A stretch of DNA of 64,000 bases from Minisyncoccota bacterium (GTDB lineage: Bacteria; Patescibacteriota; Minisyncoccia; Phycocordibacterales; UBA1006), in contig JALEGN010000001.1 in assembly GCA_022763365.1 (NCBI GenBank), positions 30,514 through 94,513 on the forward strand. The letters are read 5' to 3'. This document shows, piece after piece, positions 30,895 to 33,803 of the stretch (position 1 is the first letter of the stretch; each line of letters starts with the position of its first letter). The position numbers and the translations under genes are program-made. The notes beneath the pieces were generated by a model, which did no database searches, was not told the DNA's origin, and saw only the letters and a list, made by a program, of their open reading frames with translations.

Positions 30895-32130
30895 ATGAAT
30901 ATATTCAGCAAAATAATAGACATTGATAATATTCGAGAAGCTTATTTTGAAGTTGTTCAAAAATTTGAAGAGCAAAATAGAAGTTATTCATACAGTGGAA
31001 TTGATGGAAAACGACTTGCTGATTATGATTTTGATTCAGAGAATCTTTTTCTTACTATCAAAAAAGAATTAGAAGTATTTCAAACTATTAATCCAAGTCT
31101 TGAAATAATGATCCCTAAAAAAAACAAACCAGGTCTTCGTCCAGTATACATCCATACACTCAAAGAACGGATAAAATCTCAGGCAGTTTTCCGGATAGTC
31201 TATCCTTATTTTGATGAATATTTCACCCATTATGTATACTCCTATCGCCCAAGCCACCCTTATGAAACAGCAATTAAGACAGTTGTACGTCGCTATAAAA
31301 ATACTGCACATCAGGAAAGTATTTTAATAGGTGATATCGGAAGTTATTCAGATAACATTAATCCTCAGATATTAAAGAAGCAGATTCAAAGAATTGGTTT
31401 TGACGCAGATACTAATAAAATATTATATCTATATGTTGATATGCAAATGTTTCAAGAAGGAGAGATTCGTTCGTCAGAACGTGGAATTTTAACGGGTTTA
31501 CCGATCACGGTGCTGTTTAATAATCTTTATCTTAATTCTTTTGATAAAATTTTTGGTAAAGAATTATCTCTCTATAGGCGAGTAGGAGATGACTTTATTG
31601 CTTTTGATAATAAGGAGAATTTACAAAAAGCTAAGAAAGAAATGCACGTACTACTTGATGAGCTCTTAGTACCACAGAAAGATCAAAAAATAGAAATTAT
31701 TAAAAAAAATAACTGTTTTAAATTTTTAGGTTACGAGTTTAATAATGGAATAATTTCAATTTTACCTAAATCAGTTCGGAATATTAAAATATACCTTCGA
31801 TCTCGGTTGCGATACCGACCATTTCATTCCTGTGATAAAAAGATTAAGAACTTCAAAAAACTATTTTTTGAAAAGGAAGCGTTGAAATATTATTTTGTTC
31901 AAATTGTGAGACAATATAATCACTGTAATGATAGGGAACAAATAAAACACCTTGCAGATTATTTTCTCATACGAGCAACCATATATTTTTTTGGTACATA
32001 TACTAAACGTAATAGACGTCTTACTCAGAAAATATTGAGAGATTTAGATATCCCGTCGTTAACGCAATATTATAGGGCTTTTCATTCAGGATCGATGAGT
32101 CCTGAAAAACTCCATACACTGACTACATGA
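30895..32130 (+). CDS. reverse transcriptase (retron / group II / UG-like RNA-directed DNA polymerase), catalytic residues intact
   Basis: RT0-like SGIDGKRL. Motifs 1/2 IPKKNKPGLRPVYIHTLKERIKSQAV and YSYRPSHPYETAI. Motif 3 ILIGDIGSYSDNI. Motif 4 LTGLPITVLFNNLYL (no QG). Motif 5 YRRVGDDFIAF (DD present). Motif 7 FKFLGYEF. Confidence 0.85.
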   Translation: MNIFSKIIDIDNIREAYFEVVQKFEEQNRSYSYSGIDGKRLADYDFDSENLFLTIKKELEVFQTINPSLEIMIPKKNKPGLRPVYIHTLKERIKSQAVFRIVYPYFDEYFTHYVYSYRPSHPYETAIKTVVRRYKNTAHQESILIGDIGSYSDNINPQILKKQIQRIGFDADTNKILYLYVDMQMFQEGEIRSSERGILTGLPITVLFNNLYLNSFDKIFGKELSLYRRVGDDFIAFDNKENLQKAKKEMHVLLDELLVPQKDQKIEIIKKNNCFKFLGYEFNNGIISILPKSVRNIKIYLRSRLRYRPFHSCDKKIKNFKKLFFEKEALKYYFVQIVRQYNHCNDREQIKHLADYFLIRATIYFFGTYTKRNRRLTQKILRDLDIPSLTQYYRAFHSGSMSPEKLHTLTT

Positions 32131-33803
32131 ATACTTTACAGCGACAAGTAAATACTTTAAAAAAACGTATGCAAATTAAAGTAGAGGAGCGACCTTTACG
32201 TTTTGATAAACAGAAAAAAGACTATATTAAAAAACTTTTTTTAGTGCAGAAAAAACATATCTTAAGGCTGCTTGCACTGGTTATTGGAATAAGTCTCATA
32301 GAGATAAGTGCCCCATTATTTCTTGATATCTTTTTGTCAAAGCACTCTTTTAATCTGAGGGCGAATACCTTGTTTGCCGCAGGTATAATCTTGTTTTTAA
32401 TAGTAATTATTTATTTAGTTATTAGTTATTTTGCTTTAGCAATTCAAAAAAGGCTGACATTAAATATTATTAATAAGGTGCGAGAAGATTGGTTACGTTT
32501 TTATATCAATAAGAAACCACTCACACTTAATAGTAAAGACAAAGGGAATGTTTTTGTAAAAATTAGCTATCATCTTTCGTTGTTACAAATGGGATTAGGG
32601 AATTCTTTATTTAGTTTTTTTCAATGGATATTATATTTTGGTGGAGTCTTAATAGTGAGTGCTATCATCGATATAAAATTACTCTCTATTTCATTAATTT
32701 TTATTCCAATAAATATTCTTATTGTTGGTATTAGTTATATTTTCTCCGCATACTATTTAGCCAAAGATCAAACTTTGTATTCAAAAATACTCAGGTATAT
32801 TTCTGATACCTTTGAGCGATTTGAATTAGTTAAATCATTTAATAAAGAAAATACATTCATTCGTGAGGTGAACGATATGATTGAGATTGATAATCATTTT
32901 CGTATTAAGCGTGAGATTGTACTTCGTTATGGAAATAATATTATTTTCGCCATACTTACATTACTCACCATAGGAACCTACATAATTAATTTATATAATC
33001 CAACCTTACTTGCATTTACTTCAACAAGTTCATTAGTTCAAATTCTTATTTTTGGACTCCATCTTCGTTTAGTTTATCTTAGTATGCGGATGGGCTTGTT
33101 TTATTTCCCTTTGAAACTAGGATTGTTTTTATCAGTTCCACCAACGATATTCTTTAAAAAAGGTAAGCATCTAAAGTCCATACAACATCTTGGTTTTCGC
33201 ACTCCTAAGGTGAAACTATTTACTAATGATTCATATCAAAAAAATATTCAGTTTGATTTTGAAAAAGGTAAAAATTATCTCATCCTTCATTCAAAAGAGG
33301 AACGATTAGTGAATATGAATCATGTATTTGCTGGTATTGCATCATATAGAAAAGGGATTCAATGGGTTGTTCACGCGAACAAACAGCGCTTACTGTATAG
33401 TCGTTTTTATGAGGCGCAAAAAAATATATTTTATATTCACAAAAACCTCTATTCTCATGGTTCAATATATGAACTTCTGAATAATCATAGTAACTTAGAA
33501 ACTCTTACTCAATATCCAGAATTTGATTTTATTTTTCAAAAAAGAAAATTTGTTGCTGATAACTATTCTCCAGAAAATTTTGACATTCAAGATCTCTTCC
33601 TAATTCAGGTCGCATATTGTTTGATGGCAAATCCTGACATAGTTGTCGTTGACGAATGTTATGCCGACATACATTATGACCGTATCAATGAGGGTATTGA
33701 TTTACTCAGATTAAAATATGATGGTATTCTCATAGTAAGTTCTCGAAACAACTCCCAAAATCAAGATAATTATCATGTCACTTATACACTTCGTAAAAAG
33801 TAA
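32127..33803 (+). CDS. polytopic membrane protein with a C-terminal degenerate ABC-ATPase-like domain (ABC-exporter-like pseudo-ATPase)
   Basis: A ~6-TM N-terminal half is followed by an NBD-like region. The Walker A position reads LILHSKEERLV (degenerate). The signature position reads QDLFLIQ in place of LSGGQ. Walker B IVVVDE is intact. The H-loop position reads IVSSR. The start overlaps the RT stop (ATGA). Confidence 0.6.
   Translation: MNTLQRQVNTLKKRMQIKVEERPLRFDKQKKDYIKKLFLVQKKHILRLLALVIGISLIEISAPLFLDIFLSKHSFNLRANTLFAAGIILFLIVIIYLVISYFALAIQKRLTLNIINKVREDWLRFYINKKPLTLNSKDKGNVFVKISYHLSLLQMGLGNSLFSFFQWILYFGGVLIVSAIIDIKLLSISLIFIPINILIVGISYIFSAYYLAKDQTLYSKILRYISDTFERFELVKSFNKENTFIREVNDMIEIDNHFRIKREIVLRYGNNIIFAILTLLTIGTYIINLYNPTLLAFTSTSSLVQILIFGLHLRLVYLSMRMGLFYFPLKLGLFLSVPPTIFFKKGKHLKSIQHLGFRTPKVKLFTNDSYQKNIQFDFEKGKNYLILHSKEERLVNMNHVFAGIASYRKGIQWVVHANKQRLLYSRFYEAQKNIFYIHKNLYSHGSIYELLNNHSNLETLTQYPEFDFIFQKRKFVADNYSPENFDIQDLFLIQVAYCLMANPDIVVVDECYADIHYDRINEGIDLLRLKYDGILIVSSRNNSQNQDNYHVTYTLRKK

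Follow-up and report, generated by a model that had tools for sequence, protein, structure and literature searches.

Type I ABC exporters of the MsbA/Sav1866/TM287-288/PglK type (B-family) are the closest described relatives of the membrane protein analyzed here and share with it domain order, fold, the Pfam TMD and the Walker B Asp. Heterodimeric exporters, such as TM287/288, BmrCD, TAP1/2, PatAB and MsRv1273c/72c, also resemble it in having non-canonical residues at the catalytic base and in further NBD motifs. They keep one full consensus site, their two genes are adjacent, and the degenerate subunit still supplies a canonical signature to its partner's consensus site. In SbmA/BacA (SLiPT), a TMD of the ABC-exporter type is proton-driven and works without ATP hydrolysis (PMC8442886, PMC13316013).

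Retrons, DRT and UG-Abi systems share with the locus a reverse transcriptase (RT) that has a structured ncRNA, flanked by an inverted repeat, directly upstream and effector-like genes, some of them for membrane proteins, downstream, as well as a sporadic, fast-evolving, multi-copy distribution. In contrast, the RT of the locus appears at family level to belong to neither the retron nor the DRT lineage, and its ncRNA is unrelated to Rfam families. An ABC-exporter-like or ecto-PLD partner of an RT is not mentioned in the RT surveys PMC2602772, PMC4244168 and PMC9226505, by which measure the pairing of an RT with an exporter-like membrane protein and a predicted ecto-PLD is unprecedented; for G2L RTs, PMC2602772 mentions neither ABC nor PLD neighbors.

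The locus lies in a window of 64,000 nucleotides (the whole stretch of DNA analyzed) from a Minisyncoccota bacterium. Its pseudo-ABC half-exporter comes third in a cassette whose four parts, ncRNA, RT, pseudo-ABC protein and PLD enzyme (Table 1), are strictly conserved; in contrast to type I exporters, it is always encoded between RT and PLD. We moderately favor an explanation in which an ATP-independent membrane module couples the RT and its ncRNA to an outward-facing PLD, perhaps as a conflict system. To our knowledge, very few RT or defense systems of Patescibacteria/CPR have been characterized.

Table 1. Features of the cassette and of the canonical half-transporter, in window coordinates
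Feature	Position	Strand	Basis or remark
Structured ncRNA, ~327 nt, immediately 5' of RT	30570..30896	+	Inverted repeat, fold energy
Closing helix P1 of ncRNA	30570-30600 pairs with 30866-30896	+	31-nt inverted repeat, 87% complementary
Conserved ncRNA core, H1 plus H-type pseudoknot	30595..30689	+	Covariation, CM
Hairpin H1 of ncRNA core	30602-30617	+	
Pseudoknot stem S1	30617-30623 with 30656-30662	+	RNAalifold, covariation
Pseudoknot stem S2	30626-30632 with 30678-30684	+	Covariation
Variable 3' region of ncRNA, GC-rich hairpins	30695..30867	+	MFE and centroid structures
Individual GC-rich hairpins of ncRNA	~30704-30744, 30760-30789, 30796-30826, 30842-30867	+	Background ~30% GC
Reverse transcriptase, 411 aa, group-II-intron-like	30895..32130	+	RVT_1 E 7.7e-14
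Pseudo-ABC half-exporter ORF, 558 aa	32127..33803	+	ORF call identical to that of the sequence-only reading
Type I exporter TMD, residues 50-309 (Pfam)	32274..33053	+	Pfam, AF2 secondary structure
Degenerate NBD, residues ~353-558	33183..33800	+	hhalign, PDB profile matches, fold
Walker A position, lost: H388-S-K-E-E-R-L-V395	33288..33311	+	hhalign vs canonical GPSGSGKS
Signature (LSGGQ) position, lost: F485-D-I-Q-D489	33579..33593	+	hhalign vs canonical LSGGE
Walker B I505-V-V-V-D509, then E510 (IVVVDE)	33639..33656	+	hhalign vs canonical ILIFDE
H-loop position, N541 replaces His	33747..33749	+	hhalign register
Two-HKD PLD-family enzyme, 488 aa	33775..35241	+	PLDc_2 E 7.8e-38, two stretches
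Canonical half-transporter, only one in window	13370-15100	-	17 kb from pseudo-ABC, opposite strand

The pseudo-ABC protein and its nucleotide-binding domain

A sequence-only reading of this DNA had described the protein as laid out like a half ABC exporter, with about six TM helices followed by an NBD, and Pfam, hhalign, AF2 and Foldseek all bore this out. In the window protein, ABC_membrane (PF00664) matched residues 50-309 (E 7.5e-13; 49.2 bits against a cut-off of 28), and the AF2 model has six long TMD helices of 32-50 residues at 42-73, 79-127, 136-181, 183-230, 241-290 and 299-336. In the Pfam search ABC_tran (PF00005) found no match in this protein even at E<=1; the canonical exporter of the same window, serving as internal control, scored 123.6 bits on ABC_tran. 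PF00005 was matched by 15 of 26 members of the pseudo-ABC family (best E 6.4e-10), and in the PDB a profile of only the C-terminus of the Walker-A-less clade returned little other than ABC NBDs, and these in register. With hhalign, the family aligned to the canonical exporter of the same genome over 496 columns spanning TMD plus NBD (98% probability, E 1.5e-13). The AF2 model (pLDDT 78.5) matched MsbA, TM287/288, PglK and PCAT1 over ~550 columns in Foldseek, where matches to type I exporters reached E 1e-13 to 1e-15 and TMq up to 0.70. The structural comparison that the earlier reading had proposed hence recovered a full-length type I fold, that of MsbA, TM287/288 and PglK, and the C-terminal profile search gave homology to ABC NBDs; the unrelated domain that it had named as a refutation did not materialize. 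PF00005 matches in relatives, PDB profile, hhalign and AF2 fold together identify the C-terminal domain as a true NBD homolog.

We took the motif register from the hhalign alignment with the canonical exporter that the genome also encodes, with GxxGxGK[ST] as canonical Walker A, and scored family-wide motif states on 51 pseudo-ABC sequences. None of the 51 has the LSGGQ signature or the Q-loop Gln; at the latter position the window protein has K439 and the family Pro. The H-loop column holds His in four members and lacks it in 47, and the Glu after Walker B is absent from 49; the two members that have it are the window protein and its closest relative. The Walker B residue D509 is conserved across the family, with Asn as the consensus for the next residue (D-N). 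Since signature, Q-loop Gln, H-loop His and catalytic Glu are missing family-wide, no ATP-hydrolyzing site would form even with a canonical partner, and ATP-driven transport by the pseudo-ABC protein can be regarded as excluded on motif grounds. We are close to certain of the pseudo-ABC identity and of the non-hydrolytic status of the protein. The degenerate, non-hydrolytic NBD of the sequence-only reading was thus upheld by the 51 sequences, and so was Walker A loss at LILHSKEERLV, where HSKEERLV stands in register and alignment revealed no canonical P-loop. Other motifs it had placed or weighted differently. The signature is indeed lost, although the equivalent of LSGGQ is FDIQD, some 3-4 residues upstream of the QDLFLIQ it had pointed to; the H-loop His is replaced, but by N541 rather than within IVSSR (537-540); and IVVVDE with its Glu, real in this protein, is not a preserved feature, as the family consensus is Asn.

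Walker A in the form GxxxxGK[ST] is kept in ~60% of the family and was lost in at least five lineages; the window's clade is without it. Exactly in the lineages without Walker A the position after Walker B drifts (E/A/S/P/H/T), so that loss of Walker A and loss of the post-Walker B Asn are coupled in at least five lineages. Stepwise intermediates lead from Walker A with D-N through GRS and AKS variants to complete loss. Judged from these motifs, most members, with Walker A and D-N, look as if they bind but do not hydrolyze nucleotide, a further likeness to the heterodimeric exporters, and the E510 Glu of the window protein appears to be free of family-level constraint. With these intermediates a series is already at hand in which to study the function of an NBD that no longer burns ATP.

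The protein might alternatively be the degenerate half of a heterodimeric ATP-driven exporter whose canonical half is encoded elsewhere, for example by the half-transporter gene 17 kb away. Exporters with one degenerate site are common (TM287/288, BmrCD, PatAB, Rv1273c/72c). Yet this arrangement seems very improbable to us: signature, Q-loop Gln and H-loop His are missing besides Walker A, so that neither composite site would be catalytic; the cassette moves between phyla; and in none of the 34 cassettes does a second ABC gene travel along as partner. In contrast to heterodimeric exporters, the pseudo-ABC family hence has neither family-wide conservation of hydrolysis motifs nor a partner gene.

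Compared with type I exporters, which have all these motifs, the pseudo-ABC protein has become basic, and its conservation is centered not on the NBD but on the cytoplasmic extension of the TMD helices (residues 105-159, 207-267 and 321-340). This extension reaches 2.6-2.9 bits against 2.0-2.3 bits in the membrane cores and contains 24 of the 41 positions conserved at >=90%; its conserved residues include K145, Y148, H149, G156, Y210, T216, Y218, S219, D255, F258, R259, R262, G323, P328 and G332. The TMD with its cytoplasmic extension has a net charge of +10 (pI 9.9), and the degenerate NBD a family median of +8 (pI 9.3) versus -3 (pI 6.0) for the canonical NBD; the whole protein has a pI of 9.7, the genome's canonical exporter one of 6.1. 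From the alignment, selection is strongest on the basic cytoplasmic extension of the TM helices and not on the nucleotide site. The basic pI could reflect binding of acidic lipid head groups rather than contact with the RT, RNA or cDNA.

The sequence-only reading had suggested a membrane-targeted effector or sensor and not a transporter. The pseudo-ABC protein may still conduct or transport independently of ATP in an SbmA-like manner. SbmA, however, has no NBD, whereas the pseudo-ABC protein still has a folded, conserved and basic remnant of one, and a new role for the NBD is implied. The family is a half-exporter that persists stably in nature although it conserves neither the signature nor the Q-loop Gln, the catalytic Glu or the H-loop His, and whose NBD kept its fold and turned basic.

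The upstream RNA and the reverse transcriptase

The ncRNA upstream of the RT folds with -123.8 kcal/mol (z = -10.7 versus shuffles). Equivalent closing helices of unrelated sequence occur in about 23 of 28 loci, with a median duplex energy of -38.3 versus -17.7 kcal/mol for shuffled sequences, and total ncRNA size across loci is ~200-330 nt. Within the conserved core, S1 was picked unaided by RNAalifold, with compensatory changes in six of its seven pairs, and is 96.4% paired on 32 sequences. For S1 and S2 together, 94.3% of cells pair as opposed to 25-50% in slid controls, and 11 of the 14 pairs show double changes, a value that none of 500 shuffles reached. The CM (R1) scored the window ncRNA at 52.7 bits (E 1.5e-8) and gave matches at this position in 28 distinct loci, of which 14 had no part in the training set; the element was found only with the RT family of this cassette. 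Further 3', the hairpins vary in number and sequence between loci, and in the distant clade a ACTCATTGTCAnTAAA motif is conserved in this region, along with a GGyCGTyAGGT hairpin. In Rfam the ncRNA matched no family at E<=1, and by this measure it is a previously undescribed structured RNA.

Such an RNA could be a cis-regulatory leader only, riboswitch-like or for translational control, and neither template, primer nor partner of the RT. In the window, the RBS-like AAGAAAG and the start codon of the RT (ATG at 30895) both lie in the 3' arm of P1, and in most loci this arm spans -30 to +20 around the RT start; compact, covarying pseudoknot cores are moreover typical of ligand-binding aptamers. 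An exclusive leader function is nevertheless unlikely in our view. The element's restriction to this RT family and the missing Rfam match speak against it, as do its size, its variable hairpin region and its inverted-repeat-bracketed position, which mirror retron msr-msd and DRT ncRNAs; tandem duplicated cores, present in L022 and L023, would be odd for a leader. The two roles, leader and RT partner, are not mutually exclusive.

The RT stop codon overlaps the pseudo-ABC start (ATGA). Catalytic motifs of the RT, including YRRVGDD, are near-invariant in 32 homologs, and group II intron RTs are its nearest relatives. The family is nonetheless bounded: 27 members score at least 231 bits, followed by a gap to ~50 bits, where GIIM-containing intron RTs appear; in the cassette RT itself Pfam detected no GIIM domain. 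On TIGR04416 it reached 115.7 bits against a cut-off of 300. The best PADLOC matches were generic RT and UG26 at 96-110 bits, with 96.1 bits (E 4.6e-28) for RT_UG26 and similar scores for generic RT, RT-Cas1, UG4 and UG17. A Vsr-like endonuclease, the reported partner of UG26 (PMC9226505), is absent from the cassette.

We also weighed whether the locus is a retroelement of a known kind (retron, DGR or group II intron) that carries cargo genes, or whether its ABC-like gene is a decaying relic, and consider this most improbable. The layout is retron-like, with an inverted-repeat-bracketed ncRNA, then the RT, then accessory genes; intron RTs are the closest kin, and CPR genomes are rich in DGRs. 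However, no template/variable repeat pair was present within window positions 24000-44000, where no direct repeat exceeded 49 nt. Rfam returned no Intron_gpII or D1-D4 match near the RT and no msr match, each at E<=1, the TIGR04416 score stayed below the cut-off for intron RTs, and none of the 17 PADLOC matches of the RT was a retron RT model. Retron RTs, as we take it, carry VTG in motif 7 and NAxxH, whereas here motif 7 reads FLGY and NAxxH is not present. The intact ORFs in more than 50 sequences at 20-57% identity, the 41 positions conserved at >=90% and the confident fold together rule out a relic. The dead NBD is a stable trait of the pseudo-ABC family, not decay. For retroelement biology, the cassette brings a further RT lineage, one that has a covarying, pseudoknotted ncRNA of its own.

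The PLD enzyme, the cassette and its possible role

The PLD gene overlaps the pseudo-ABC gene by 29 nt. Its product begins with a basic tail, followed by a single TM helix (residues ~21-39), and carries a beta domain at the C-terminus; in sequence it matches NucT and DrmC-type proteins. HKD1 is canonical (HxKxxxxD..GSxN), and HKD2, HxHxxxxD..GTNNW with His for Lys, is invariant in 28 of 28 sequences. The bilobal AF2 model (pLDDT 83.9) matches F13, PLD3, PLD1/2 and PssA. This two-HKD fold is shared with PLD3/PLD4 and NucT/Nuc-type nucleases, from which the cassette PLD differs by the HxH of the second HKD and by the extra C-terminal beta domain. In all 28 sequences the flanks of the TM helix hold 3-9 K/R on the N-terminal side versus 0-4 on the C-terminal side. 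The positive-inside rule, the only basis here, predicts an N-in/C-out topology with the catalytic domain outward; the enzyme would thus resemble PLD3 in its type II anchor and non-cytoplasmic catalytic domain. This predicted extracytoplasmic position and the structured ncRNA had both been absent from the sequence-only reading.

That reading had also coupled the pseudo-ABC protein to the RT and the PLD. Indeed, the gene order RT, pseudo-ABC, PLD is kept in 34 of 34 related loci, down to 23% identity and mostly with overlapping ORFs, and pseudo-ABC, RT, ncRNA and PLD very probably form one functional unit. At E<=1e-30, a set of 1.84 billion representatives contains ~93 clusters of the pseudo-ABC family, for the most part from Patescibacteria/CPR. 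The family has a sharp bound, full-length members scoring >=160 bits and generic exporters <=80 bits; the RT and PLD families are as small and as bounded. Occurrence is sporadic (29 loci among 185,579 species genomes) and extends to a non-CPR Longimicrobiales genome and to unrelated contexts, while a search of plasmids, phages and viral contigs returned no copies. Some single MAGs contain two diverged copies, and cassette proteins are 41-54% identical where the flanking DnaE, NusB and RnhB are 63-88% identical. Such sporadic, fast-evolving, multi-copy behavior is typical of accessory or conflict genes.

In the explanation that we favor, the RT with its conserved active site would act on or with the upstream ncRNA in the cytoplasm, and a pseudo-ABC dimer would form the ATP-independent membrane module. 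The positively charged cytoplasmic face of this dimer (ICD plus degenerate NBD) might bind the RT-ncRNA complex or a nucleic-acid product; charge and conservation lead us to infer that RT, RNA or cDNA contacts the pseudo-ABC protein. Exporter-type TMD and PLD TM anchor could then pass the event across the membrane, acting either as a gated conduit or as a conformational switch, so that it reaches the PLD hydrolase at the outer face. If the RT output is really relayed across the membrane, this would be a new way of using reverse transcription. We may further speculate, as a quite unlikely extension, on a new class of trans-membrane retroelement machine in which the RT copies part of its ncRNA, and the nucleic-acid product or RNP docks on the basic cytoplasmic side of a nucleotide-independent conduit derived from an ABC exporter and is threaded to, or allosterically switches on, a PLD3-like outer nuclease. 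If true, this would amount to RT-driven signaling or nucleic-acid export across the membrane, known for the most part from CPR episymbionts; its target might be the host cell or DNA that arrives at the cell surface.

From the parallel with retrons, DRTs and Abi RTs we propose a role in inter-genomic conflict, as anti-phage or anti-MGE defense, possibly abortive through membrane or envelope damage. The proposal is tentative and in our judgment falls a little short of an even chance. PLD-family and TM proteins recur as effectors in PADLOC systems (matches to DrmC, MkoC and DpdK). An extracytoplasmic hydrolase is, however, an unusual defense effector, the pseudo-ABC protein matched no PADLOC model, and with none of 10 flanking proteins matching PADLOC there is no defense-island context.

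Instead of defense, the pseudo-ABC protein could serve the cell-surface physiology of an episymbiont as an ATP-independent (proton-driven or facilitative) transporter or flippase. Variants of this idea are scavenging or remodeling of host phospholipids with the outer PLD, or uptake and processing of extracellular DNA (type IV pili, competence). SbmA provides a precedent for an ABC-exporter-type TMD working without ATP (PMC8442886, PMC13316013), fold matches of the PLD include both lipid enzymes (PLD1/2, PssA) and PLD3, an ssDNA exonuclease, and the nearest PLD outgroup consists of PLDs fused to ComEA-like HhH DNA-binding modules. We nonetheless think a surface function rather unlikely. It would offer no role for the RT, whose active site is conserved, nor for the ncRNA dedicated to it, although both are strictly tied to the cassette; the cassette is also far too sporadic for core physiology, evolves faster than its neighbors and has diverged duplicate copies. 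Adjacent genes fit a surface function, and defense genes were not found near the cassette; yet pilin and surface genes are abundant in CPR genomes, so that adjacency may be chance. Housekeeping, pilin, giant surface-protein or competence genes make up the neighborhood: in L001, L006, L009 and L029 the RT is immediately preceded by pilin-like genes, comM and dprA adjoin L031, and giant surface proteins flank the cassettes of the distant clade.

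A hydrolysis-dead NBD on a type I exporter fold

Four independent lines identify the C-terminal domain of the pseudo-ABC protein as an ABC nucleotide-binding domain (NBD). In Pfam, PF00664 (ABC exporter TMD) matched residues 50-309 (E 7.5e-13); the C-terminal ~230 residues gave no Pfam match even at E ≤ 1, and the protein had no match in PADLOC. Among homologues drawn from 5.8 billion proteins, however, 15 of 26 matched PF00005, the best with E 6.4e-10. When a profile was restricted to the C-termini of nine members that lack Walker A (the A2 set), 53 of its 54 PDB matches were ABC NBDs, with weak E-values (≥0.008), yet in register around Walker B. 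An hhalign comparison of the family with a canonical half-exporter from elsewhere in the window covered TMD and NBD alike, in 496 columns aligned at 98% probability (E 1.5e-13). The AF2 model (pLDDT 78.5, pTM 0.66) showed six helices of 32-50 residues followed by an alpha/beta domain; its matches to type I exporters (BmrCD, TM287/288, MsbA, PglK with TMq 0.70, PCAT1, McjD) extended across ~550 columns, with E-values of 1e-13 to 1e-15. The exporter layout and NBD homology proposed in the sequence-only reading are thus borne out. The canonical exporter, with 123.6 bits to ABC_tran, 109.3 bits to ABC_membrane and intact GPSGSGKS and LSGGE motifs, serves as an internal control, and the absent NBD signal is hence not a by-product of lineage-wide sequence divergence.

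In the hhalign register, the canonical Walker A GPSGSGKS faces H388-S-K-E-E-R-L-V395, the Q-loop Gln faces K439, the signature LSGGE faces F485-D-I-Q-D489, ILIFDE (Walker B and catalytic base) faces I505-VVVD-E510 and the H-loop His faces N541. The motif degeneracy described earlier was therefore right in substance, although the signature equivalent FDIQD lies 3-4 residues off the proposed QDLFLIQ, and the replaced H-loop His corresponds to N541 and not to a residue within IVSSR (537-540). Degeneracy extends throughout the 51 non-redundant family sequences: LSGGQ occurs in none of them, the Q-loop position is mostly Pro, and the H-loop column holds His in only 4/51. A canonical Walker A (GxxxxGK[ST]) is kept in ~60%, with SGRS or AKS variants in some; it was lost in the clade of the window and separately in the family members P0012 and P0023 and at the related loci L015, L016 and L030.

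The catalytic Glu had been taken as retained, a view that does not hold for a preserved feature. In the family consensus the Walker B Asp is followed by Asn, and this Asn is lost where Walker A is lost, being replaced by E, A, S, P, H or T. Because both losses coincide, Glu510 would represent an unconstrained position and not a preserved catalytic base. From the alignment, the ancestral family state looks like one that may bind nucleotide but not hydrolyse it, and the residual nucleotide site would evidently be dispensable. Across the family, the fold is that of a type I exporter and the NBD is dead for ATP hydrolysis. We also considered that the protein is the degenerate half of an ATP-driven heterodimer with a canonical half-transporter. 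In ABC proteins the nucleotide sites are composite, and a consensus site needs the signature of the partner subunit. As the signature is also gone, a canonical partner could not restore a consensus site, which all but removes the heterodimer explanation.

Genetic coupling to RT, structured ncRNA and PLD

The hydrolysis-dead exporter is the central one of three co-directional, overlapping ORFs (see table). The order RT, ABC-like, PLD, usually with overlapping ORFs, was found in 34/34 loci examined, a count that includes contigs ending inside the cassette and lacking the gene beyond the contig edge. The sole variation in order was at L005, a locus of 23% identity whose RT is transcribed divergently. 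An identical pseudo-ABC protein is on deposit for a 'Candidatus Pacebacteria' MAG.

Features of the cassette, its counterparts and its surroundings (coordinates without locus prefix refer to the window; L-numbers are related loci carrying the cassette)
Feature	Location	Strand	Remarks
Structured ncRNA	30570-30896	+	directly 5' of RT; counterparts upstream of RT in L001-L034; not annotated before
Inverted repeat	30570-30600 / 30866-30896		31 nt, 87% complementary
RT	30895..32130	+	4-nt ATGA overlap with pseudo-ABC ORF
Pseudo-ABC	32127..33803	+	558 aa
PLD	33775..35241	+	overlaps pseudo-ABC ORF by 29 nt
Canonical half-exporter	13370-15100	-	internal control
RNase HII	35248-35844	+	starts 6 nt past PLD stop
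220-aa ORF	35933-36595	+	no Pfam match
Exo_endo_phos family protein	23302-24072	+	7 kb 5' of cassette
Exo_endo_phos-like, by eye	L009:9232-10017	-	directly 3' of cassette; no PADLOC match
Tandem ncRNA cores	L022:4143-4234, 4447-4540		before single RT
Tandem ncRNA cores	L023:935-1027, 1241-1333		before single RT
IS element	L003:3014-4467		HTH_Tnp_1 + rve; just 5' of ncRNA
Pilin-like genes	L001:3926-4486, L006:3841-4413, L009:3824-4414, L029:2790-3311	+	N_methyl motif
Pilin-like genes	L030:2648-3160; window 41243-41815	-	N_methyl motif
comM-like, dprA-like	L031:9299-10900, 10936-11787	-	directly 3' of cassette
Distant-subclade block, example	L017:92-4480, 8971-9558, 9598-10808, 10981-13704		

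The ABC-like family was searched for exhaustively by HMM among 1.84 billion cluster representatives, which gave 93 clusters at E ≤ 1e-30, fragments counted. Full-length members scored at least 160 bits, a handful 84-120, and ordinary ABC exporters at most 80. The RT family has 27 members at ≥231 bits, followed at ~50 bits by group II intron RTs that carry GIIM; the PLD family has 10 at ≥272 bits, followed at ~55 bits by PLDs with a fused HhH (ComEA-like) DNA-binding module. Since both families are as small and as sharply bounded as the ABC-like family, the three genes co-evolve one-to-one.

In every locus the RT is preceded by a spacer, which measures about 160-650 nt and usually 250-350 nt. 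In the window, an inverted repeat encloses a 265-nt segment with GC-rich hairpins, and the whole folds at -123.8 kcal/mol (z = -10.7). Most loci have closing helices of 17-33 nt with entirely different sequences, in which the 3' arm reaches up to or over the RT start codon; the core-anchored closing duplex has a median of -38.3 kcal/mol, compared with -17.7 for shuffled arms. The 5' core is alignable across both clades. Here RNAalifold chose, unaided, the long-range helix S1 of 7 bp, in which 6/7 pairs show compensatory changes. S1 and the crossing helix S2 form an H-type pseudoknot in which 94.3% of cells pair, compared with 25-50% for slid partners; double changes occur at 11/14 pairs, and 0/500 shuffles reached the observed values. 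A covariance model of the core matched 28 distinct loci on the RT strand, directly 5' of the RT, 14 of them outside the training set, and on this larger set S1 was paired in 96.4% of cells. Weak matches at window 19260-19358 (E 0.28) and on the minus strand of L017 were regarded as noise. The long spacers of L022 and L023 (~620-650 nt) are explained by two tandem cores. The ncRNA had no part in the sequence-only reading.

An Rfam scan of 29500-36500 gave by E-value only two chance matches, both outside the spacer; a group II intron or other known RNA was rejected, as nothing in Rfam matched the ncRNA. A promoter and terminator scan was uninformative (26 promoter-like sites, 25.9 expected). A diversity-generating retroelement, suggested by the CPR context with surface-protein and pilin neighbours, was dismissed as there was no TR/VR repeat. 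Retrons have a similar layout, but the RT falls outside the retron clade.

The catalytic residues of the RT are conserved; YRRVGDD, the motif 3 Asp and FLGY are all near-invariant. In the PLD, the first HKD motif is canonical and the second reads H-x-H-x4-D; its Lys to His exchange is invariant in 28/28 homologues, which points to a conserved variant and not to decay. All 28 also carry a basic N-terminal tail and one hydrophobic helix, with 3-9 K/R before the helix and 0-4 after it. By the positive-inside rule, this bias predicts the catalytic domain outside the cytoplasm. The model (pLDDT 83.9) includes a C-terminal beta domain and matches vaccinia F13, the ssDNA exonuclease PLD3, PLD1/2 and PssA, so that nucleases and lipid enzymes could not be told apart by fold. 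PLD3 is a type II membrane protein, as is predicted for the cassette PLD. Genetically, the pseudo-ABC protein is thus strictly coupled to the RT, to an ncRNA with covariation and to a PLD that has a TM helix at its N-terminus.

Degenerate NBDs and RT-ncRNA-effector systems are each of an already known kind. In RT surveys (PMC2602772, PMC4244168, PMC9226505) and a wider full-text search of an incomplete literature collection, we came across neither an RT that has an ABC-exporter-like protein or an ecto-PLD as partner, nor the cassette ncRNA, nor any half-exporter family that has lost all its hydrolysis motifs; each of these may have been described before.

A conserved, basic cytoplasmic face

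Conservation and positive charge of the pseudo-ABC protein both sit on its cytoplasmic face. In the 51-sequence alignment, mean information was 2.6-2.9 bits in the cytoplasmic extensions of the TM helices and the cytoplasmic end of TM6 (ICD), 2.0-2.3 bits in the membrane cores and 2.09 bits in the NBD. Of 41 positions that reach ≥90% conservation, 24 fall in the ICD, among them K145, Y148, H149, Y210, T216, Y218, S219, D255, F258, R259, R262, G323, P328 and G332. Family median net charges are +10 for the ICD (pI 9.9) and +8 for the NBD-like domain (pI 9.3), and the whole protein of the window has +28 (pI 9.7). The canonical NBD of the same genome has -3 (pI 6.0) and its whole exporter -6 (pI 6.1). 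A GC-rich Longimicrobiales member is basic too (+5, pI 9.4). The simplest reading would be that the ligand is a polyanion, whether nucleic acid or the acidic head groups of lipids.

The four parts most likely work as one machine. The RT would act on or with the ncRNA, and a pseudo-ABC dimer could take up the output on its basic ICD/NBD face. Via the exporter-type TMD, acting as a gated conduit or a conformational switch, this output might be relayed without ATP to the PLD, which is predicted to face outward. SbmA illustrates that an exporter-type TMD is able to work without ATP (PMC8442886, PMC13316013).

Distribution, genomic context and possible role

Among 185,579 species genomes scanned, 29 loci were found, most of them in Patescibacteria (Saccharibacteria, Peregrinibacteria, Komeilibacteria, Falkowbacteria, Parcubacteria). 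One lies in a Longimicrobiales genome on a 2.96-Mb contig, and the same protein also occurs on a 5.47-Mb contig; putative 'Gammaproteobacteria' and 'Flavobacteriaceae' MAG labels belong to short AT-rich contigs. Searches of plasmid, phage and IMG/VR contigs gave no copies. Two MAGs hold two cassettes each, with ABC-like copies 52-54% identical within each. In the window the cassette shows a GC dip (~0.30, surroundings 0.35-0.38) between dnaE(-) and rnhB(+). Compared with its syntenic close relative L006, the flanks are 88% (DnaE), 72% (NusB-Nudix) and 63% (RnhB) identical, and the cassette proteins 54% (RT), 48% (ABC-like) and 41% (PLD). An IS element distinguishes L003 from the otherwise near-identical, Longimicrobiales-type L004 and L018.

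The sporadic, fast-evolving, multi-copy and phylum-crossing distribution, together with the retron/DRT-like layout, makes a conflict (defence) role the most likely one, if only tentatively so. Surface physiology, i.e., lipid scavenging or extracellular DNA processing tied to pili and competence, seems less likely. In its favour are the predicted outward-facing PLD hydrolase and the lack of a defence-island context around the cassette, where 0/10 unidentified flanking proteins matched PADLOC.

Cassette contexts are unrelated between loci: dnaE/rnhB, SecDF/FtsW, an IS element with molybdoenzyme genes, giant repeat surface proteins with cupredoxin-like proteins, pilin-like genes, or comM/dprA-like genes. 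We rejected dnaE and rnhB as cassette associates; their synteny, including the adjacency of RNase HII to the PLD, attractive as it looks in the company of an RT, is kept only in L006 and is probably coincidental. The 220-aa ORF that follows has a weak partial homologue in L006 (30% identity over 101 aa). A fourth protein gene was likewise discarded, as recurrent neighbours were confined to one subclade. This distant subclade (L017, L019, L022-L029, L032, L033) has a conserved flanking block, probably organismal synteny, that encodes giant GNVGIGTTNP-repeat surface proteins, whose C-terminus is similar to an intramolecular-chaperone/S74-type domain, along with a membrane-anchored protein of ~195 aa and anchored proteins of the cupredoxin-like type.

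Type IV pilin-like genes lie directly 5' of the ncRNA-RT in four to five independent loci, and the window homologue lies 6 kb 3' of the cassette in the opposite orientation. CPR genomes are rich in pilin genes, and the adjacency may be fortuitous or may reflect a tie to the cell surface or to DNA uptake. At L031, two ORFs were assigned by eye as comM-like (Mg-chelatase-like/YifB; no PADLOC match) and dprA-like, and both would be competence-related. Finally, an ORF next to the L009 cassette resembles, by eye, the Exo_endo_phos protein of the window.
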